Positions 39,755-60,941 of a stretch of 64,000 nucleotides of DNA are shown piece after piece. The position numbers and the translations under genes are program-made. The notes under the pieces were generated by a model. That model had not been told where the DNA came from. It saw only the letters and a list, made by a program, of their open reading frames with translations, and did not search any database. Position 1 is the stretch's first letter. Each line of letters begins with the position of its first letter. The DNA lies in assembly GCA_963755155.1 (NCBI GenBank), contig CAVWIV010000004.1, forward strand, positions 24,386-88,385. Direction: 5' to 3'. The stretch is from an uncultured Actinomycetes bacterium (GTDB taxonomy: Bacteria > Actinomycetota > Thermoleophilia > Gaiellales > Gaiellaceae).

Positions 39755-40297
39755 TCAGTGCGGGTGCTCGTGGGACTGCACTCCCGGCCCGGGGACCGCC
39801 TCAGTGCGCGGGCCAGACGGCACGCCGTGGAGCTCGGGAGGCGTGGTGAGACCTGGCGGGGGCGAGAGCGGCACCGTCTGAGGCGAGCTCGTCGGCGGGC
39901 CTGCCGCAGGCGTCGGGGCCGCGGGACGCGGAGGCGGCCTCAGGTCCGGCTCCTTCGGCACCTGCGGCCCGCGAGCACCGGCAACCGGTGACTCGGGCGT
40001 CACGGGCGTGGTGGCCGGCTCCGCCGCGGGCGGAGCTGACTGGCCGCCGCTCTTCTCCGGGAGCGGCTGGCGGGCCGCGACGAGCAGGCCGGCCGAGACG
40101 ACCACCGCGGGCTGCGAGCGGTGGACACGGCCCTTCGGGGTGGCGGCAGCGCCGGCGTCGTCCGTCGCGGGCAGCGAGAAGATCGGCGCGGGCAGGGGCA
40201 CGTCGTCCTGAAGCGCCATGCCCCAGAGCTGCACCGCAAGTGTCGTCACCACCACGGCCAGCGTGCAGCGGGCGGCCAGCACGAGCCCGCCCCTCAC
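39755..40297 (-). CDS. Membrane-anchored Pro-rich protein ending HEHPH (hypothetical)
   Basis: GTG 40297 overlaps the cyclase stop (GTGA). TM helix CTLAVVVTTLAVQLWGMAL, then about 140 aa of a Pro/Ala/Thr-rich extended region. It is the in-frame tail of the composite ORF 39755..41539. Confidence 0.5.
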   Translation of the reverse strand: MRGGLVLAARCTLAVVVTTLAVQLWGMALQDDVPLPAPIFSLPATDDAGAAATPKGRVHRSQPAVVVSAGLLVAARQPLPEKSGGQSAPPAAEPATTPVTPESPVAGARGPQVPKEPDLRPPPRPAAPTPAAGPPTSSPQTVPLSPPPGLTTPPELHGVPSGPRTEAVPGPGVQSHEHPH

Positions 40298-41916
40298 ACG
40301 ATCACCGCCTCGGCGACGCGGTTCTTGCCCTCGTGCTTGGCCCGGTACAGCGCCGAGTCGGCAGCGGCGAGCAAGTCCTCCGTGCTCTCGACCGGCGGGG
40401 ACGAGGCGAACCCGAAGCTCGCGGTCACGTTCAGGGCGCCGCCATCGGGCAGGCCGATCTCGAGACCGGCGAGCTGTGCCCGGAGCCGTCCGGCCAGCAC
40501 GGAGGCGCCGCCCGCGTCCGTCGCAGGCAGGAGGACGGCGAACTCCTCGCCGCCGAGCCGCGCGGCGAGGTCCGTCGCGCGCGCCGTCTCCATGAGCACG
40601 AAGGCGAACGCCTGGAGCACGGCGTCGCCCGTCTCGTGCCCGTGGCGGTCGTTCACGCGCTTGAAGTCGTCGAGGTCGGCGACGATCAGCGCCACCGGGT
40701 CGCCCGTGCGCGTCCTCCGCTTGGCCTCGACGGAAAGCTGTTCCATGAAGCGTCGCCGGTTGGCGAGGCCGGTCAGCGGATCGGTCACGGCCTGCCGCCG
40801 CGCGATCGCGCCCTGACGGGCGTTCTCGACCGCGACGGACGCCTGTCCCGCAAACCTCTCTGCACGCTCGCGCTCGGCCGCGCTGAAACCGCCGAAGGGC
40901 GGATAGAGCAGCGCGACGATCTGGAGCCCGTTCGTCCCGGCGAGCTCGAGGCGGAGCGGCTCGACGAGCGGCGGGATCTCTCCGGTCGTGGCGATCTCCG
41001 CGCCGCCCTCCTGAAGCACGCCCCCGACCGCTCCCGTGGCCTCGACGGCCGACTCGAGGACGACCGGCAGCAGCGCCGCGCGATCGTGTGCGGAGGCAAG
41101 GGCGCTCCCGACCAGCTCGATGGACTCCTGCTCGTCGGCGCCGCGGCGGCGGCCGGCGTGACGCCGGACGATCGGAACGAGCGCGTCGCCGGCGATCACG
41201 AGGGTAATGAGGGTCGCGAGACCGGCGGCGGCGACCAGCAGCACCTTTTTGCTGGGGAGGGTGTCCTGCGACGCAGCCGGTACGAGGGCGACGAGCCGGC
41301 CATGCTCCGGGCAGCGGCGTGGCGAACGCGCGGTAACGGCGCCCGCCGATCATGATCGTGTGCGGCGAGCGACCCGGCGCCGACCGAGTCGTTGTGGCTC
41401 TCCACACGGAGCGGGACGCCCGCGCGGCGCTGGAGCCGGCGAAGCAGCTCTCGGTCGAGCGTGACGGCGACGCCGACGCGACCGAGCCTCCTTTGGCCCG
41501 GGCCGAGGACGTCGACGGTGCGCTCGATGGCATCCACATCCCCCGCCCCGATCAGCCGCCGGCCGCCGGCGTAGACCACAAGCCCCGGCCAGGTGCGGGC
41601 GGTGCGCCTGGCGGCTGCGCGGTCTGCTCGGACGACGGCCCGCTGCACTGCCGGCGTGCGCGCGAGGCGACGAGCTTCCGCGTCAGCGACCGACATCTCG
41701 ATCGCCAGCTCCGCCCCTGCTGCCCTGAGCCCAGCGGCGAGACGCGAGTCGACTCGCTCGCGCTTCTGCGTCTTCGAGCTGCGTCGCGACGACCCAGCCC
41801 AGCGCGGCGAGGGGCACGGCAAGCACGGCAGCGATGACTGCGGCCTGCCGCAGTCGCGAGCGACGGCCGGGTGAGCGTTCAGCTCGGCGTACGCCCGGTT
41901 CCCGTTCCCTGTCCAT
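40294..41916 (-). CDS. Membrane-bound sensor diguanylate cyclase (TM - extracytoplasmic domain - TM - GAF-like - GGDEF); three inferred frame breaks (about 41760, 41372, 41310)
   Basis: Start MDREREPG... with TM helix AAVIAAVLAVPLAALGWVV. A sensor region is spread over ORFs 41683..42171, 41196..41963 and 39755..41539. The second TM helix is LLVAAAGLATLITLVIAG. The GGDEF domain carries DPLTGLANRR, DLDDFKRVNDRHGHETGD, I-site RATD and active site GGEEF (ORF 40294..41244). Confidence 0.82.
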
Positions 41917-54523: not shown

Positions 54524-55051
54524 TCGGAGTGTTGGTATCCGGCGAGGGGACGAACCTCCAAGCGCTGATCGACGACGACTTGCCGATCGCTGCCGTCGCG
54601 TCGAACAGGACAGACGCGCGAGCGCTCGAGCGGGCGCGTGCAAGCGGCGATCCCGACAGCCGTATTCGACGCCGCCGACCATCCGTCGCGAGCACACCGC
54701 GACGCGGCTATGGCGGACTGGCTGGAGGCAAAGGGCGCGACGCTCGTCGTCTGCGCCGGCTTCATGGAGCTCCTGACGCCGTCGTTCCTCGAGCACTTTC
54801 CCGGACGGATCGTGAACATCCACCCGTCTCTGCTCCCCGCGTTCCCCGGCACGCATCCGATCGCGGACGCGATCGCCGCCGGCGTCGACAGGACGGGAGT
54901 GACCGTGCACTACGTGGACGAAGGCGTGGACACCGGACCGGTGCTCGCGCAGGAACCGGTCGCCGTCGAGCCTCGCGAGACGCTGGTCGAGCGAATCCAC
55001 GAGCTCGAGCACCGGCTGTTGCCCCGAGTCGTGAAAGGCCTTCTCGAGTGA
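54520..55051 (+). CDS. purN: GAR formyltransferase PurN; one inferred frame break near 54637
   Basis: [18 protein letters not shown] (frame 1, GTGA overlap with purM), then IPTAVFD...[36 protein letters not shown]...[20 protein letters not shown] in ORF 54638..55051. Confidence 0.9.
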
Positions 55052-56588
55052 TCGAGCGCGCGCTCCTTTCCGTCTACGACAAGACCGGCCTCGACGCGTT
55101 CGCGCGCGGCCTCGCGGACCTCGGCGTCGAGCTCGTCGCGAGCGGCGGCACGGCAGCGTTCATCGAGGAGCACGAGCTCGGCGTGACGCTCGTCGAGGAG
55201 CTGACGGGGGCGGGCGAGCTGCTCGGCGGACGCGTGAAGACGCTGCATCCCCAGGTGCACGCGGCGATCCTCGCGCAGGGCCGACTCAGAGGAGGACGCG
55301 TTCACGCTCGACGAGCTCGGCATCCGGCCGTTCCAGCTCGTGTGCGTGAACCTCTATCCGTTCGCGCAGGTCGCCTGGCGCTGGGGCGTGAGCGAGGACG
55401 ACGCCGTCGAGATGATCGACGTCGGCGGCCCCGCGATGCTGCGGGCGGCGGCGAAGAACTACGCGCGCGTGACGCCGGTCTGCCGCCCGGATCAATACGG
55501 CGCCGTGCTCGACGAACTGCGTGAGCACGGCGAGCTCTCGCTCGACACCCGTCGCAGCCTCGCCGCCGACGCCTTCGCGACAACGGCCGCCTACGAGTCC
55601 GCGATCGCCGCGTGGTTCGCCGGCGGCCAGGAGAGCCCCCGCACGGTCACGCCGACGTTCGACAAGGTGCTCGACCTCGCGTACGGCGAGAACCCGCATC
55701 AGCGCGCCGCCTTCTACGCGGAGGCGGGCGCGCGACGGCACGTCCTCTCGCGCGTCGACCAGCTGCAAGGCGACGCCCTGTCGTTCAACAACCTTGCCGA
55801 CCTGTCGGCCGCCCGGGCCCTCTCGGAGGAGTTCACGGTGCCCGCCTGCGTGATCGTGAAGCACAAGAATCCCTGTGGCGTCGCGCTCGGCAAGACGATC
55901 GAGGAGGCGTACGAGCGCGCACTCGCGGCCGACCCTGTCTCGGCATACGGAGGCGTCATCGTGTGCAATCGCGCGATCGACGGCGCGCTCGGCGGCCGAC
56001 TGGCCGAGCACTTCGTCGAGGTGCTCTTCGCCCCCGGCTTCGACGACGACGCGCGCGCGGCCCTGGCGGCGAAGCCGGCGATGCGCGTGCTGCTCGACGC
56101 GGAGCGCCGCCATGCGTCGCCGGGCGAGCGCGACTACCGGCGCGTGATGGGTGGCCTGCTCGTCCAGGACTCGGACGCCGACGTCGACTCGCGCGAGGCG
56201 ATGGAGGTCGTGTGCGGCGAGCCGACGGAGGACGACTGGGGCGAGCTGCTCTTCGCCTGGCGCATCTGCAAGCACGTGTCGTCGAACGCCATCGTCCTCG
56301 CGCGCGAGCTACAGACGCTCGGGGTGGGCGCGGGCCAGATGAGCCGCGTCGACGCGGTGCGCCTCGCCGTCGAGAGAGCCCGCGAGCTCGGTCACTCCTG
56401 CGAGGGCGCAGCGCTGGCGTCGGACGCGTTCTTCCCGTTCGCCGACGGGCCGCAGCTGGCGCTCGACGCGGGCGTGCGGGCGATCATCCAGCCCGGCGGC
56501 TCGAAGCGGGACGACGAAGTGATCGAGGCAGTGAGCTTCAGCCGGCGCGGTGATGGTCTTCACCCATCGCCGGCACTTCAGACACTAA
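55048..56588 (+). CDS. purH: Bifunctional AICAR transformylase / IMP cyclohydrolase PurH; two inferred frame breaks (55277 and about 56534)
   Basis: [20 protein letters not shown]...[17 protein letters not shown] (frame 1). Removing the a at 55277 restores [32 protein letters not shown]...[12 protein letters not shown]...SAYGGVI...SNAIVLA...QPGGSKRD (ORF 55340..57082). The end [13 protein letters not shown] with TAA 56586-88 is in a third frame. Confidence 0.9.
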
Positions 56589-56597
56589 GTCGGACTG

Positions 56598-59504
56598 CTA
56601 CGCAACCTCGAGGTACGCGCAGCGGCGGGTGTCCGCAGGCAGCGGCGAGCGGCCGATCCGCGCGACGAGGAAGCGCACGCCGTCGACGTCCTCGAATGCA
56701 CCGATGTCCGGCGACGGCCCGGACATCTCAGTCAGCCGGTAGACGCCCTCCACCGGCACGAACACGACGTGGCGATCCGGATCGTAGGTGCGCTCGCCGA
56801 GCCGTTCTTTCGCCGAGTCGAGACCTGCCGAGACCTCTTCGAGCAGCCTGGCGCAGCCTGAGAGCTCGACCTCGGTCGCCGCGAGCTTGTCCGTCAGCGG
56901 CTGAAGCTCGGCAAGATCCGCCTCCAGGCGGCCGAGCTCATGCCGTGTCGCAACGTGAGCAGCGCACTCCTCTTGCAGTCGCTGGTCGAGTGCGTCCGCG
57001 CTCGCGCCGAGCGAAGCGAACTGGAGCTCGACGGCAGCGCGTGCCTCCGCCTCACGGGCAAGTGCCTGCTCGCGCTCGCTGACCCGCTGCTCCAGGCCTG
57101 CGGCGCTGTCCTGGGCCTTCCTCAGCTCCTGCGCCAGCTCCCTGACCTTGGCCTTCCGCTTCTCGGAGACCTGCTCCAGACGAGTCGCGTCCCCCTGGAC
57201 AGTCGCCAGCACGCGTTCGAGCTCACTCACCCTTGGCACTTCGCGCCGCAGCTTCGTGGCCTCGGCCTCGAGGGCAGTGTGTGCCTCGGCCTCGCGTGCA
57301 AGAGCCTGCTCACGCTCGCTGACCCGCTGCTCCAAGCCGGCGGCCTTGTCCTTCGCGGCGGTCAGCTGCTGCTCGAGATCTGCCGCGGCGGCTGCGGATC
57401 CGACGCGCTCGTTCTCGAGCAGCGTCTGAAGCTCCTTGACTTTCGCCTTCCGCTGCTCGGAGACACGCTCCTGGCGAGCCATCTCGTCGCGGACGGCCGC
57501 CAGCTCCTGCTCCAACTCGCTCGCCTTCGGTGCCTGCCGGCGCAGCTCCAGCGCCTCGGCCTCGAGGGCCGTGCGTGACTCGACTTCGCGCACAAGGACG
57601 CGCTCGCGCTCGGCGACCAGCTGCTCGAGCCTCGAGGCCTCCGCCTGAGAGTTCCTCAACCCCTGCTCGAGATCAGCCGTCGCGGCGGCGGATCGCGCCC
57701 GCTCGTCCTCGAGCAGCGCCTGGAGCTCCTTCACCTTCGCCTGCCGCTGCTCGGAGACGCGCTCGTGGCGTGTCATCTCCTCGCGGACGGCCGCCAGCTC
57801 CTGTTCGAGCTCGCCTGCCTTCGACAGCTTGCGCCGCAGCTTCGCAGCCTCGGCCTCGACAGCGGCGCGTGACTCGGTCTCGCGTGCAAGAGCTTCCGCT
57901 CGCTCGCTGACGAGCAGCTCGAGCCCGGCGGCGCTCTCCTGAGCGTTCCTGAGCTCCTGCGCCAGCTCCTTCACCTTGGCCTTGCGCTCCTCGGAGGCCT
58001 GCTCGAGGCGCGCCACGTCCTCGCGGACGACCGACAGCTCCTGTTCGAGCTCCCCGGTGTCCCCGCGACTCGCGAGCTCCTCCCGGAGCTCTCCGACCGT
58101 AGCCTCGAACGCTGCAGCCTCGGCGCGAGCTTCGGTGAGCTTCCGCTCGAGCGCTTCACCCGAGGCGCGCTGCTCTTCGAGCTGCTCTGAGAGGGTCGTA
58201 ACGGCTGCATGCGCCTGGCTACCTTCCTTGCGAGCCTTGTCCAGCTCGGAACGGAGCTCGGCGAGCGCCGCGTCCAGGCCGGCGGCCTCGACGCGCGCCT
58301 CGTCCAGTAGGCGCTGCGAGTCCGCGACGCCGGCGCGCAGCTCGTCGACCTGCGCCGTGAGCGCTCCGATCGCATCCTTCGATCCGGCGTGTTCGTCGCG
58401 AAGGGCCTTCAGCTCGTTCTCGAGAGCCGCTCGTGCGTCGGCCTCGCCAGTAGATGTGGCTCGCTCGTCCTCGAGCAGCCCCTGCAGCTCCTTTACCTTG
58501 GACTTCCGCTTCTCCGAGCTCTGCTCCAGGCGAGCCAGCTCCTGGCGGACGGCTGCCAGCTCCTGCTCGAGCACGTCGGTGTCCCCACGACTCGCGAGCT
58601 CCTCCCGGAGCTCTCCGACCGTCGACTCGAACGCTGCAGCGTCGGCGCGAGCCTTGTCCAGCTCGGACCGAACCTCGTCGACCTGCGCGGTGAGCGCTGC
58701 GATCGCGTCCTTCGATCCGCCGTGCTCGTCGCGAAGCGCCTTCAGCTCCTTCTCGAGCCGGCCGGCCTCAGCCGCGAGCTGGGTCTGGACCTCGGCGCCC
58801 GCGGCGAGCTCGCCGTCGCGGACGTCGAGCTCAGCTCGAAGCTGGGCCTCCATTGCCTCGAGCTCGGCCAGCCGAGCCACAGCCTGCTCACTCTCGTCCG
58901 AGTCCTCAGCCCGCCCGGCGCGCTCCTGCCACTCGCCGACCTCCTGGGCCAGACGTTCGCGCTCCTTGCGGGACTCCTCGAGCAGGCGCAGCGTTCCCTT
59001 GTGTCCGGCGCGCTCCTCATCGAGTCTCGTCGACGCGAAGCGCAGCTGCTGGCGGAGGTTCTCGAGCTCGGCGGCGCCGTCGTCCAGCGCCGTCCAGTCG
59101 ACCTGCTCCTCGGGAGCGCCGCCGTCGAGGTCGTCGATGATTGCGAGACGTCGATCGTGCGGCGTGGACGGAGTGGGCGGCGCCACGGGCTCCAAAGGCT
59201 CTTCCGTGTCTTCGATGTCCTTCGTGCGCGGGTGGCGACGCTTGATCTCGGACCAGAGCCCGGCGCCGAATCCCTCCTGCTTCTCCATTTCGACCCCGAG
59301 TTGCTCGGCCAGCACCGTCGTCAGGGAAGGCCCGGAGACGAAGCCTTTCCTCACGAGGATCTGGCCGAGGCGCTTGCCGGTCTCCTTCTGTTCCGCCAGC
59401 GCTTCCGCCAGCTCCTCAGCCGTGATCAGGCCCTTCTCGACGAAGAGCTCTCCAAGCAGCTGCTGAGGGACGCGGGCCGCTTCCACGATCGAGCTAATCG
59501 GCAC
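56598..59504 (-). CDS. 968-aa protein: N-terminal tandem MshEN/T2SSE_N-type motifs, about 800 aa of repetitive coiled coil, small C-terminal beta-rich domain
   Basis: Single uninterrupted ORF. Residues 16-39 and 45-68 match the 24-residue MshEN motif, with a 5-residue spacer. Residues about 140-900 are Glu/Ala/Leu/Arg-rich heptad-like sequence with internal repeats. Residues about 905-968 read DPDRHVVFVPVEGVYRLTEMSGPSPDIGAFEDVDGVRFLVARIGRSPLPADTRRCAYLEVA. Confidence 0.8.
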   Translation of the reverse strand: MPISSIVEAARVPQQLLGELFVEKGLITAEELAEALAEQKETGKRLGQILVRKGFVSGPSLTTVLAEQLGVEMEKQEGFGAGLWSEIKRRHPRTKDIEDTEEPLEPVAPPTPSTPHDRRLAIIDDLDGGAPEEQVDWTALDDGAAELENLRQQLRFASTRLDEERAGHKGTLRLLEESRKERERLAQEVGEWQERAGRAEDSDESEQAVARLAELEAMEAQLRAELDVRDGELAAGAEVQTQLAAEAGRLEKELKALRDEHGGSKDAIAALTAQVDEVRSELDKARADAAAFESTVGELREELASRGDTDVLEQELAAVRQELARLEQSSEKRKSKVKELQGLLEDERATSTGEADARAALENELKALRDEHAGSKDAIGALTAQVDELRAGVADSQRLLDEARVEAAGLDAALAELRSELDKARKEGSQAHAAVTTLSEQLEEQRASGEALERKLTEARAEAAAFEATVGELREELASRGDTGELEQELSVVREDVARLEQASEERKAKVKELAQELRNAQESAAGLELLVSERAEALARETESRAAVEAEAAKLRRKLSKAGELEQELAAVREEMTRHERVSEQRQAKVKELQALLEDERARSAAATADLEQGLRNSQAEASRLEQLVAERERVLVREVESRTALEAEALELRRQAPKASELEQELAAVRDEMARQERVSEQRKAKVKELQTLLENERVGSAAAAADLEQQLTAAKDKAAGLEQRVSEREQALAREAEAHTALEAEATKLRREVPRVSELERVLATVQGDATRLEQVSEKRKAKVRELAQELRKAQDSAAGLEQRVSEREQALAREAEARAAVELQFASLGASADALDQRLQEECAAHVATRHELGRLEADLAELQPLTDKLAATEVELSGCARLLEEVSAGLDSAKERLGERTYDPDRHVVFVPVEGVYRLTEMSGPSPDIGAFEDVDGVRFLVARIGRSPLPADTRRCAYLEVA
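57017..58745. repeat. Intragenic mosaic of long imperfect direct repeats (units of about 240-330 nt) inside the coiled-coil gene
   Basis: Protein-level copies: LKALRDEHxGSKDAIxALTAQVDE (aa 254, 365); AAAFExTVGELREELASRGDT (aa 289, 464); ELEQELxxVR.E (aa 311, 485, 565, 662, 761); KAKVKEL (aa 509, 589, 686, 785); GLEQRVSEREQALAREAEA (aa 723, 803). Confidence 0.8.
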
Positions 59505-59540
59505 ATCCGAGGGCTGGCTTGAGCGTTACGCTTCGCGGCC

Positions 59541-60941
59541 GTGACGCGCGAGTACCCGACGCTGCTCGACCTCGTTGGCGGAACGCCCGTCGTTCGCCTG
59601 CTCAATGTCGGAGCCGAGCTCGGCTGCACGCTGCTCGCGAAGCTCGAATACATGACGCCCGGCGGGTCGAACAAGGACCGGATCGGGCTGCGCATGGTCG
59701 AGGCCGCGGAACGGGATGGAAAGCTCGAACCCGGGGGCACGATCGTCGAGCCGACCTCCGGCAACACCGGCGTCGGGCTCGCGCTCGCCGCCGCAGTCAA
59801 GGGCTACAAGCTCATCTGCGTCGTACCCGACAAGGTGGCGACGGAGAAGATCGCCCTGCTGCGCGCGTTCGGGGCCGAAGTCGTCATCTGCCCCACTGCC
59901 GTCGACCCGGACTCGCCGGAGAGCTACTACTCGGTGTCCGACCGGCTGGCCGAGGAGATCCCGGGCGCGTACAAGCCGGACCAGTATTCGAACCAGGCGA
60001 ACCCGGACGCGCACTACCACTCGACCGGGCCCGAGATCTGGGAGCAGGTCGGCGACGACCTCGATGCGATCGTCATCTCCGTCGGCACGGGCGGGTCGAT
60101 CAGCGGCATCGGTCGCTATCTCAAGGAGCAGAAACCCGAGCTCGTCGTCGTCGGGGCCGATCCCGAGGGCTCGGTCTTCACCGCAGAGGACGAGAGCGGC
60201 GTCCACCCGTATCTCGTGGAGGGCATCGGCAAGGACACGTTCCCCGAGACGTTCGACCCGTCGATCGTGGACGAGTACGTGCGCGTGTCCGACCGCGACT
60301 CGTTCCTCACCGCGCGCCGCCTCGCACGCGAGGAGGGCATTCTCGGCGGCGGCTCGGCCGGGACGTCGGTGTTCGCGATGCTCGAGACGGCGCGGCGCCA
60401 CGGCCCGGGCAAGACGATCCTCACGACGATCCCCGACGGCGGACGCGGCTACCTCTCGAAGCTCTTCGACGACAACTGGATGCTCGAGCACGGCCTGCTC
60501 GAGCGTCGCGGCCCGCTGCCGACGATCGACGAGGTGCTCGCGTTCAAGCACGCGGACGACGGCGCCACGCCCGACCTCGTCGTCTGCGAGGCGCACCAGA
60601 AGATCGGCGCCGCCATCGAGCTCATGCAGCGCTACGGGATCTCCCAGCTGCCCGTCGTCCGGCGCGACCCGCCGGCCTCGCTCACCGACGTCATCGGCTC
60701 GCTCAACGAGCGCGGGCTGCTCGACCGCGTGTTCCGCAATCCCGACTCGCTCGGCGAGGACGTCGCAGGCGCCATGGACCCGCCGCTGCACGCGGTGGAC
60801 GCCGGCGAGTCTGTCCGCGACGTCTACGGCAGCCTCGCCGGCACCGGCGCCGCCGTGCTCGTCGCCCGGTCGGGCGCTCCGGCCGCCGTGCTCACGCGCA
60901 GCGACCTCCTCGAGTACCTCGCGCACGGTCGCGCCGACTAG
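59541..60941 (+). CDS. cbs: Cystathionine beta-synthase (PLP fold type II domain plus C-terminal CBS pair)
   Basis: GGTPVVRL, YMTPGGSNKDRIG (PLP Lys), EPTSGNTGVGLA and GTGGSISG, then two CBS motifs (EAHQKIGAAIELMQRYGISQLPVV and AVLVARSGAPAAVLTRSDLL). Confidence 0.88.
   Translation: MTREYPTLLDLVGGTPVVRLLNVGAELGCTLLAKLEYMTPGGSNKDRIGLRMVEAAERDGKLEPGGTIVEPTSGNTGVGLALAAAVKGYKLICVVPDKVATEKIALLRAFGAEVVICPTAVDPDSPESYYSVSDRLAEEIPGAYKPDQYSNQANPDAHYHSTGPEIWEQVGDDLDAIVISVGTGGSISGIGRYLKEQKPELVVVGADPEGSVFTAEDESGVHPYLVEGIGKDTFPETFDPSIVDEYVRVSDRDSFLTARRLAREEGILGGGSAGTSVFAMLETARRHGPGKTILTTIPDGGRGYLSKLFDDNWMLEHGLLERRGPLPTIDEVLAFKHADDGATPDLVVCEAHQKIGAAIELMQRYGISQLPVVRRDPPASLTDVIGSLNERGLLDRVFRNPDSLGEDVAGAMDPPLHAVDAGESVRDVYGSLAGTGAAVLVARSGAPAAVLTRSDLLEYLAHGRAD

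Follow-up and report, generated by a model that had tools for sequence, protein, structure and literature searches.

On the minus strand of the 64,000-nucleotide (nt) stretch of Gaiellaceae DNA analysed here (hereafter, the window), an open reading frame (ORF) encodes a protein of 968 amino acids (aa) that begins with a cyclic di-GMP (c-di-GMP) receptor module of the MshEN_N type, continues as a long, repetitive coiled coil and ends in a small β-domain. Its N-terminal part is a genuine MshEN_N module that appears to be competent for ligand binding and, judging from its residues, the protein probably binds c-di-GMP. For the protein as a whole, the best reading, to which we give a probability of about 0.5, is that of a c-di-GMP-binding tether or scaffold that would exert its output through the C-terminal domain. 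This reading builds on the observed motifs, fold, heptad periodicity, family architecture and conserved synteny, which are described below. The ORF and the segments of its product are the following (pLDDT stands for the predicted local distance difference test score):

56598..59504, minus strand: whole ORF, 968 aa, with a GTG start; stop codon at 56598-56600.
59388..59459, minus strand: MshEN motif I, aa 16-39, LLGELFVEKGLITAEELAEALAEQ; positions 1 and 6 are L and F, and G3, G10, L17, L21 and Q24 are intact.
59373..59387, minus strand: spacer KETGK, aa 40-44, five residues between the motifs.
59301..59372, minus strand: MshEN motif II, aa 45-68, RLGQILVRKGFVSGPSLTTVLAEQ; R at position 1 and F at position 11.
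59226..59300, minus strand: near-invariant extension, aa 69-93, LGVEMEKQEGFGAGLWSEIKRRHPR; outside canonical MshEN_N, from the close-family alignment.
59085..59225, minus strand: linker rich in Asp, Pro, Glu and Thr, aa 94-140; probably disordered (pLDDT below 50 where modelled).
56796..59084, minus strand: coiled-coil rod, aa 141-903 (about 760 residues), from composition and heptad periodicity.
57136..57927, no strand assigned: DNA tandem repeat with a period of 294 nt, 2.7 copies and 74% matches; at the protein level, these are the 98-aa A-module copies of the rod (aa ~527-790).
56601..56777, minus strand: C-terminal β-domain, aa 910-968 (59 aa), from alignment and AlphaFold model.

A preliminary description of this gene, made from the sequence alone, had placed two 24-residue motifs at aa 16-39 and 45-68, separated by exactly five residues (KETGK), and both the positions and the spacer proved exact. 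The motif that we used was (R/K/L)LGxx(L/V/I)(L/V/I)xxG(L/V/I)(L/V/I)xxxxLxxxLxxQ, in two copies exactly five residues apart, which together make a 53-residue unit. In motif I, the Leu at position 1 had been correctly noted but was counted as the only deviation, whereas the Phe at position 6, a conservative change in the core, also departs from the pattern. The Phe that had been remarked on at a hydrophobic position of motif II is the one at position 11; it is conservative too, and the V. cholerae version of the motif permits it as (I/F). The ligand-contact positions (2, 3, 10, 17, 21 and 24) are canonical in both motifs of the window protein.

Profile searches identify the same module. NF053729, the NCBIfam model named ‘cyclic di-GMP-binding domain, MshE-related’, is 53 positions long, of which 2-53 align with aa 17-68, and its score is 66.8 bits for the full protein (E 1e-18) and 73.3 bits for aa 1-80, the curated cutoff being 38. 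Additionally, NfrB models match aa 9-78 (E ~1e-8), the PilB model matches only aa 17-72, and a phmmer search of PDB sequences retrieved the GSPII-B domain of Thermus PilF (E ~1e-10) and MshE of V. cholerae (5HTL, E 3.8e-9), in alignments that end at aa 71-78. The MshEN_N profile of the family itself scores 108.9 bits on the window protein. The Pfam family that had been put forward for this check, PF05157 (T2SSE_N), gave no match at E ≤ 1 to either the whole protein or aa 1-80, for which Pfam offered nothing beyond coiled-coil families below threshold and a weak similarity to DUF4388. The reason is that the protein has the N-terminal sub-domain (MshEN_N) alone: the α/β sub-domain MshEN_C (T2SSE_N1) is missing and an acidic linker stands in its place, so that the protein carries less than a full MshEN domain. 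A search with PF05157 alone would thus have led to a wrong dismissal of the module, and NF053729 is therefore the appropriate model. Structure prediction, which the preliminary description had also proposed, gave a four-helix bundle (aa 13-23, 29-42, 46-53 and 58-68) in an AlphaFold model built from 13 family sequences. The root-mean-square deviation of this model from c-di-GMP-bound MshE (5HTL, as 5htl_B; 46% identity) is 0.8 Å over 54 aa, and from PilF GSPII-B (54-56% identity) it is about 1.0 Å.

Several observations on individual residues bear on ligand binding. Wang et al. 2016 (PMC5013675), who defined the 53-residue MshEN_N unit and the ‘MshEN_N-only’ proteins, found that the module on its own (VcMshE 1-62), lacking the C sub-domain, has an affinity of 0.35 µM for c-di-GMP. 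The same work reported that many MshEN domains have lost binding, and described changes that abolish it in Xanthomonas XpsE (G11V, I19R, L29R, R38G, G40L, L54H, L58C and Q61V; PMC5013675). With an offset of +7, by our own mapping, these sites correspond to G18, L26, L36, R45, G47, L61, L65 and Q68 of the window protein, all of which are kept. The Leu at position 1 of motif I is not a defect, since it falls within an extended consensus: the K167L variant of PilF GSPII-B binds c-di-GMP more tightly than the wild type (dissociation constants of 2 and 6 nM, respectively) and was crystallised with the ligand (8PE0), and the consensus was consequently widened to (R/K/L)LG (PMC11731258). In the wider family, 99 proteins supplied 158 tandem pairs of motifs, and in these L17 is conserved in 98% of the copies of motif I and 97% of those of motif II, L21 in 96% and 98%, and Q24 in 99% and 91%, respectively. 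As these three positions were left free by the search pattern, their conservation is not built in, and their near-invariance therefore points to selection that maintains the ligand site. Position 1 of motif I is Leu in 51% and Pro in 42% of the same pairs. Separately, Phe takes the place of Gly10 in 38% of all copies of motif II and, by eye, in the first module of one relative (P0029).

Immediately after the module, the near-invariant segment LGVEMEKQEGFGAGLWSEIKRRHPR is confined to the single-module subfamily, with a variant form in P0172, and the homology to PilF reaches approximately aa 78, that is, into this extension. Within it, aa 82-90 form a short, basic, amphipathic-looking helix that is predicted with low model confidence. 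A membrane contact, a ligand contact or a partner-binding motif are all possible roles for this segment.

The middle of the protein had been described as about 800 residues of modular coiled coil, in the place where a secretion ATPase would stand; we found about 760 residues of it, and no ATPase. Ala, Glu, Leu and Arg make up 61% of the rod, and Pro plus Gly 5%. The local Fourier power of core hydrophobic residues at a period of 3.5 is 0.92, compared with 0.16 ± 0.04 in shuffled sequences (z = 20.7), and there is no comparable signal at periods of 3.0, 3.67, 4.0 or 5.0, with a weaker shoulder (0.47) at 3.6. An offset scan of the protein against itself revealed five copies of a module of about 98 aa (module A, starting at aa 312, 486, 566, 664 and 762), two copies of module B (aa 254 and 365) and two of module C (aa 289 and 463), which are up to 82% identical over 40-aa windows. 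In the close family, the number of module copies tracks protein length, and the window protein has the highest numbers of A, B and C (the others having 0-3, 0-1 and 0-1, respectively). No Walker A motif and no T2SSE ATPase domain (by Pfam or NCBIfam) was found in the 968 aa, nor was any hydrophobic segment of the membrane type, the highest 19-aa hydropathy being 0.83.

The last 59 residues had been set apart beforehand as a C-terminal domain of roughly 60 aa without an assignment, and they form a five-stranded domain that has kept this status. In a confident AlphaFold model (pLDDT 91), the last helix of the coiled coil runs into β-strands at aa 911-918, 921-928, 937-940, 943-952 and 961-967. 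Among 27 sequences with 29-78% identity over the last 110 residues, nine residues are invariant (Y, G, P, R, S, P, P, C and L), and the domain can be described by the pattern F.P...GY.L....G..P..G....(5-9)..V.R.G.SPLP.D.R.C.YLE, located at the extreme C-terminus. The window protein scores 92.7 bits on the profile of this domain (A3). Comparison with the PDB by sequence and profile yielded no match (the best, an integron cassette protein, had E ~0.5), and Foldseek found nothing significant in the PDB (best E 0.2, for a glutamine-synthetase N-domain and ribosomal L25) and, in BFVD, only uncharacterised phage proteins of about 60 aa at E of at least 2e-3. A PilZ domain was considered and rejected, as there is no Pfam match to it, none appears among the Foldseek matches listed, and the RxxxR and D/NxSxxG motifs are missing from the alignment.

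The architecture is that of a family. A search with the whole protein returned 41 relatives, all of them from metagenomes or metagenome-assembled genomes (MAGs), and the named ones are labelled Gaiellaceae or Gaiellales; an exact look-up of the window protein itself in the public collection gave no record. Of these relatives, 17 are co-linear orthologues (37-57% identity, 535-858 aa), and the others (900-1,650 aa) have only both ends in common with the window protein. When the profile of the C-terminal domain was run against a collection of 1.84 billion representatives of clusters at 50% identity, E was at most 1e-3 for 1,515 clusters and at most 1e-10 for 935, and in the best 150 of the 1,515, which were the matches listed, the domain lies at the C-terminus or within a few tens of residues of it. 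An N-terminal MshEN_N was detected in 90 of the 110 examined members of at least 400 aa, as one module in 32 and as two in 58. Between the ends, the spacer is coiled or disordered, with about 50-80 residues at its shortest and about 1,400 at its longest. For instance, a 212-aa member (P0121) keeps both ends with about 80 residues between them, and in a 364-aa member with two MshEN_N modules (P0101) an acidic, disordered linker rich in Pro and Glu replaces the coiled coil. Protein length varies accordingly, from 344 to 968 aa in the close family and from about 175 to 1,656 aa in the superfamily. From these constant ends and this variable middle it follows that the conserved unit is the sensor plus the C-terminal domain, and that the rod is an evolvable spacer.

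Homologues are named in their sources as ‘hypothetical protein’ or, by the Joint Genome Institute (JGI), as ‘chromosome segregation ATPase’, with organism labels of Thermoleophilia or Gaiellaceae. According to a genome scan with the N-terminal alignment, which covers the close family, this family occurs in about nine GTDB species representatives, all of them MAGs, one of which is a closed chromosome of 3.1 Mb. As far as it has been found, the family occurs only in Thermoleophilia. A paralogous subfamily (P0019-P0041, e.g., L004 10001-14035 and L005 10001-13648) comprises proteins of 1,160-1,660 aa with two N-terminal MshEN_N modules, a different helical rod and the same C-terminal domain, and these long two-module paralogues sit in unrelated, non-conserved neighbourhoods. 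In rare cases (among P0133, P0150 and P0094/P0157) the C-terminal domain has other contexts: it follows an AMP-binding, acyl-CoA-synthetase-like enzyme, possibly in a merged gene call, it is also found after a predicted membrane segment, and there are proteins with two stretches that resemble it.

The same domain also exists on its own. A word-indexed profile search showed that it occurs in Gaiellaceae as a free-standing protein of 59 aa (e.g., P0214 and P0281), 45% identical to the C-terminal domain of the window protein, in many clusters, some of which are present on dozens of contigs, and with several not flagged as partial by NCBI. In every locus read, the gene for this small protein lies 12-13 nt downstream, and on the same strand, of genes for a REC-GerE regulator and a kinase, which are preceded by a radical-SAM gene. 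The kinase, a HisKA_3/HATPase_c protein of 216-248 aa, lacks a sensor domain, its sequence starting directly with the His box. The operon is located as follows:

L018 6602-8180 (same order in L019-L025): two-component operon with the 59-aa protein, conserved across syntenic Gaiellaceae contigs; kinase gene at 7338-7988 of L018.

As all these loci are syntenic orthologues, they amount to a single association only. No fusion of a kinase or a regulator to the C-terminal domain was found among the more than 300 proteins searched, no two-component genes flank the long family proteins in the neighbourhoods read, and the 64-kb window contains neither such a kinase operon nor a paralogue of the 968-aa gene.

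In the tether or scaffold reading, the protein would be soluble and cytoplasmic. Each MshEN_N four-helix bundle (one in this protein, two in others) would bind one molecule of c-di-GMP. The contacts would come from backbone amides in the LG dipeptides, from the Leu clusters that L17 and L21 form in each motif and from Gln24, and Leu16 and Arg45 would each stack on one of the guanines. The middle spacer, with its roughly 760 residues, would be a heptad rod that is most likely dimeric and may have been lengthened recently by module duplication, and the C-terminal β-domain would act as an output or anchoring module that binds a partner and holds one end of the protein on its target. Occupancy by c-di-GMP could then alter what the N-terminal end binds, or the assembly or localisation of the protein, and the rod would set distance and valency. 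We infer ligand binding, the oligomeric state, the partner binding and the scaffold role. A further proposal is that the family may be a new class of effector, namely a c-di-GMP-gated tether or ruler. In it, the β-domain, which would also serve as the free 59-aa partner of a sensor-less HisKA_3 kinase, would anchor one end to a target of a signalling or structural nature, the MshEN_N head loaded with c-di-GMP would control assembly or localisation at the other, and the length of the rod (about 80 to 1,400 residues) would tune reach. We regard this proposal as unlikely.

Several points weigh against the tether or scaffold. PF05157 does not recognise the module, and the N-terminal model is only moderately confident (mean pLDDT 62, with a core at 75-85). 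The C-terminal domain has no match in Pfam, NCBIfam or PADLOC, so that partner binding is argued from its conservation and modularity only. Of the members of at least 400 aa, 20 of the 110 lack a detectable MshEN_N and begin inside helical sequence, although these look like truncated gene calls. The distance between the two ends would be about 100 nm, and signal transfer is assumed to consist of simple co-localisation rather than allostery. Finally, the genes around the 968-aa ORF are housekeeping genes and point to no functional partner.

Other explanations have to be weighed against the same evidence. The preliminary description had favoured a c-di-GMP-responsive filament or scaffold, of which we keep the scaffold, as something inferred, while the filament fits less well given the variable rod. 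A c-di-GMP-regulated cytoskeletal filament would polymerise through its rod, like Scy/FilP or crescentin-type proteins, with the heads controlling polymerisation, and the head-rod-tail layout, the great length of the coil, its low Pro and Gly content, its strict heptads and the weak profile similarity to the coiled coils of intermediate filaments, myosin tails and SMC proteins all fit such a protein. However, every one of these coiled-coil profile matches is far below its cutoff, and neither the length nor the sequence of the rod is conserved, to the point that one member (P0101) has an acidic, disordered linker instead. Spacers typically vary in this way, whereas proteins that build filament lattices seldom do, and we regard a filament as unlikely. 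The name ‘chromosome segregation ATPase’, used by JGI, would make the protein SMC-like, and there are indeed partial matches to SMC, Rad50, JetC and LmuB profiles; but these cover only coiled-coil stretches, the arms, far below their cutoffs (66 bits for TIGR02168, the SMC model, whose cutoff is 567), and are rejected as artefacts. The 968-aa protein contains neither the Walker A motif nor the SMC signature LSGG, and the Pfam search reported no SMC head or hinge domain. The sequence thus effectively rules out this identity. Likewise, the labels PF24161 and PF23649 given to homologues in the source records denote the eukaryotic coiled-coil families CCDC39 and FKBP15, and are therefore compositional matches.

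The two remaining alternatives concern the ends of the protein, and we judge both to be improbable, more so than the filament. It might be that the N-terminal head no longer binds c-di-GMP and serves for protein interaction or dimerisation, as the non-binding N-domains of GspE and XpsE do, since motif I has Leu in place of the canonical Arg and a Phe as its sixth residue, PF05157 gives no match, and many MshEN domains have lost binding (Wang et al., PMC5013675). Nevertheless, no inactivating change of the XpsE type is present, a Leu at position 1 raises the affinity of PilF, and contact positions that are 91-99% conserved in the family would be hard to explain without a ligand. At the other end, the C-terminal domain could be the docking part of a two-component adaptor that binds a sensor-less HisKA_3 kinase and couples c-di-GMP to a phosphorelay, the free 59-aa version being a constitutive partner. 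The conserved position of the small gene 12-13 nt behind the REC-GerE and HisKA_3/HATPase_c genes speaks for this idea, but it is one association seen in syntenic loci; the absence of kinase fusions among the more than 300 proteins, and of two-component genes beside the long proteins or in the window, speaks against it.

The gene lies between two others on the opposite strand, and a candidate source of the ligand is encoded elsewhere in the window:

55048..56588, plus strand: purH, convergent with the 968-aa ORF, with 9 nt between the stop codons.
59541..60941, plus strand: cystathionine β-synthase-like gene (cbs; PALP + CBS), divergent from the 968-aa ORF.
40294..41244, minus strand: GGDEF-domain ORF, 316 aa (PF00990, E 3e-44), with GGEEF and an RxxD I-site.

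The gene had been described as monocistronic, convergent with purH across a 9-nt gap and divergent from cbs, and the coordinates of both neighbours, as well as the PALP and CBS domains of the latter, agree with this. Given the orientation of the two neighbours, the 968-aa ORF is its own transcription unit. Its start codon and that of cbs are 36 nt apart (59505-59540), a spacing that is also observed at another locus (L001) and that is 43 nt at a third (L002). No Shine-Dalgarno-like sequence is found upstream of the GTG at 59504, and this, together with the short divergent gap, suggests leaderless transcripts, or promoters located inside the adjoining genes. A scan for sigma-70 promoters gave no match, and terminator-like sites occur only at the level expected by chance, as is usual at 70% GC. 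The GTG at codon 7 (59486) is an alternative start, and several orthologues begin with Met at that point. The G+C content of the ORF is about 70%, the same as that of its surroundings, and its coding strand is strongly biased towards purines and towards A over T, as is typical for a product rich in Glu, Ala and Arg. The order cbs, this gene and purH-purN-purM is kept in orthologues with 53% and 37% identity; the gene is therefore real and vertically inherited, and a spurious ORF is ruled out by this conserved synteny and by the pattern of domain conservation.

The GGDEF-domain ORF, which encodes a candidate diguanylate cyclase, lies about 15-16 kb from the 968-aa gene, as had been claimed for a GGEEF cyclase with an I-site at 15 kb. 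Its I-site, RATD, is five residues upstream of GGEEF, and its first ~150 aa have no Pfam assignment. With GGEEF and the I-site both present in the window, the genome probably makes c-di-GMP.

Some irregularities were observed in the assemblies. In the window, purH is spread over three frames relative to an intact 512-aa orthologue (aa 1-76, 77-495 and 497-512), with single-base insertions near 55276 and 56534, and this split is due either to assembly indels or to a pseudogene; the adjacent purN and purM appear intact. Additionally, an 825-aa orthologue from ENA (P0005) has an out-of-frame stretch rich in Arg, Gly and Pro at approximately aa 520-690, which breaks the coiled coil before the conserved C-terminus resumes and looks like a pair of compensating frameshifts in its assembly. 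From the insertions in purH and the stretch in P0005, indels are present in the assemblies of this clade. Although the 968-aa ORF has no breaks, keeps its periodicity and is conserved at its two ends, the exact number of repeats in its rod may be affected by assembly indels.

Many lineages make c-di-GMP yet have few known effectors and, before ComFB, the only widespread receptor domains for it were PilZ and MshEN. Thermoleophilia (Gaiellales) are abundant, almost wholly uncultured actinobacteria of soil and the subsurface, and the gene offers a concrete and cheaply testable candidate c-di-GMP receptor for them; in the open-access literature we found no paper on c-di-GMP signalling or effectors in this group, nor on the C-terminal domain. 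The analysis also identifies a new small β-domain that is likely to be the output and that exists additionally as a mini-protein in a two-component operon, and it corrects the systematic misannotation as ‘chromosome segregation ATPase’. A new signalling principle would be at hand only if the tether or the kinase-adaptor idea were true; if the tether or ruler were, it would represent a new route from c-di-GMP to spatial organisation in deep-branching Actinomycetota.

Among known systems, MshE, PilB and PilF have in common with the window protein the 53-residue, tandem-motif four-helix bundle, at 46-56% identity and with the same five-residue spacer and ligand contacts, but they continue into MshEN_C/T2SSE_N1 and a hexameric secretion ATPase, neither of which is present here. 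NfrB of E. coli (GT2-MshEN) is a glycosyltransferase that is activated by c-di-GMP and works with a dedicated local cyclase. It is, like the protein described here, a non-ATPase protein with an MshEN module, but its MshEN domain stands at the C-terminus and controls the enzyme to which it is fused, whereas the window protein has no enzymatic domain. FrgA of Myxococcus (MshEN-UNK-HEAT) resembles it in that MshEN is followed by uncharacterised, non-enzymatic and probably scaffolding sequence, although FrgA combines a full MshEN with HEAT repeats, instead of MshEN_N only with a coiled coil and a β-domain.

Long coiled coils are also familiar in actinobacteria, where the polarity proteins Scy, FilP and DivIVA belong and where those of Scy and FilP organise development or cell architecture; to our knowledge, Scy and FilP have no nucleotide sensor. 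In Streptomyces RsiG, associated with Gallagher et al. 2020 and Schumacher et al. 2021, it is c-di-GMP signalling that has such a role, and this protein reportedly binds c-di-GMP directly on a short coiled coil through ExxxSxxRxxxQxxxD motifs. No sequence relationship of the window protein to RsiG or to Scy, FilP or DivIVA was detected.

Receptors of the MshEN_N-only kind were also catalogued in the work of Wang et al. 2016 (PMC5013675), whose Supplementary Table 4 gives REC, CheX, peptidase M23, AAA_31, CheA, TrxB and ‘UNK’ as partners of MshEN_N. Examples are Bd2402 (REC-MshEN_N-UNK), EpsG (MshEN_N-AAA_31), cce_1044 ((MshEN_N)2), Glov_2742 ((MshEN_N)2-CheX) and NlpD (MshEN_N-M23). The preliminary description had considered it unusual to find the motif pair without a secretion ATPase; the ATPase is indeed missing but, as non-ATPase fusions of MshEN_N were already known, its absence is less surprising. 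Its other statement on novelty, that no characterised example of the architecture was known, is borne out by the open-access literature, in which we found no paper on an MshEN-coiled-coil protein. As in the present family, the catalogued receptors use a portable sensor in one or two copies with unrelated or unknown outputs; none of those listed has a long coiled coil or this β-domain, and their phyletic range differs. MshEN_N is thus an established portable sensor and not a new kind of receptor. We propose as new, since it is undescribed in the literature found, the family formed in Thermoleophilia by MshEN_N, a variable spacer and the C-terminal β-domain, whose further interest depends on what the C-terminal domain binds.

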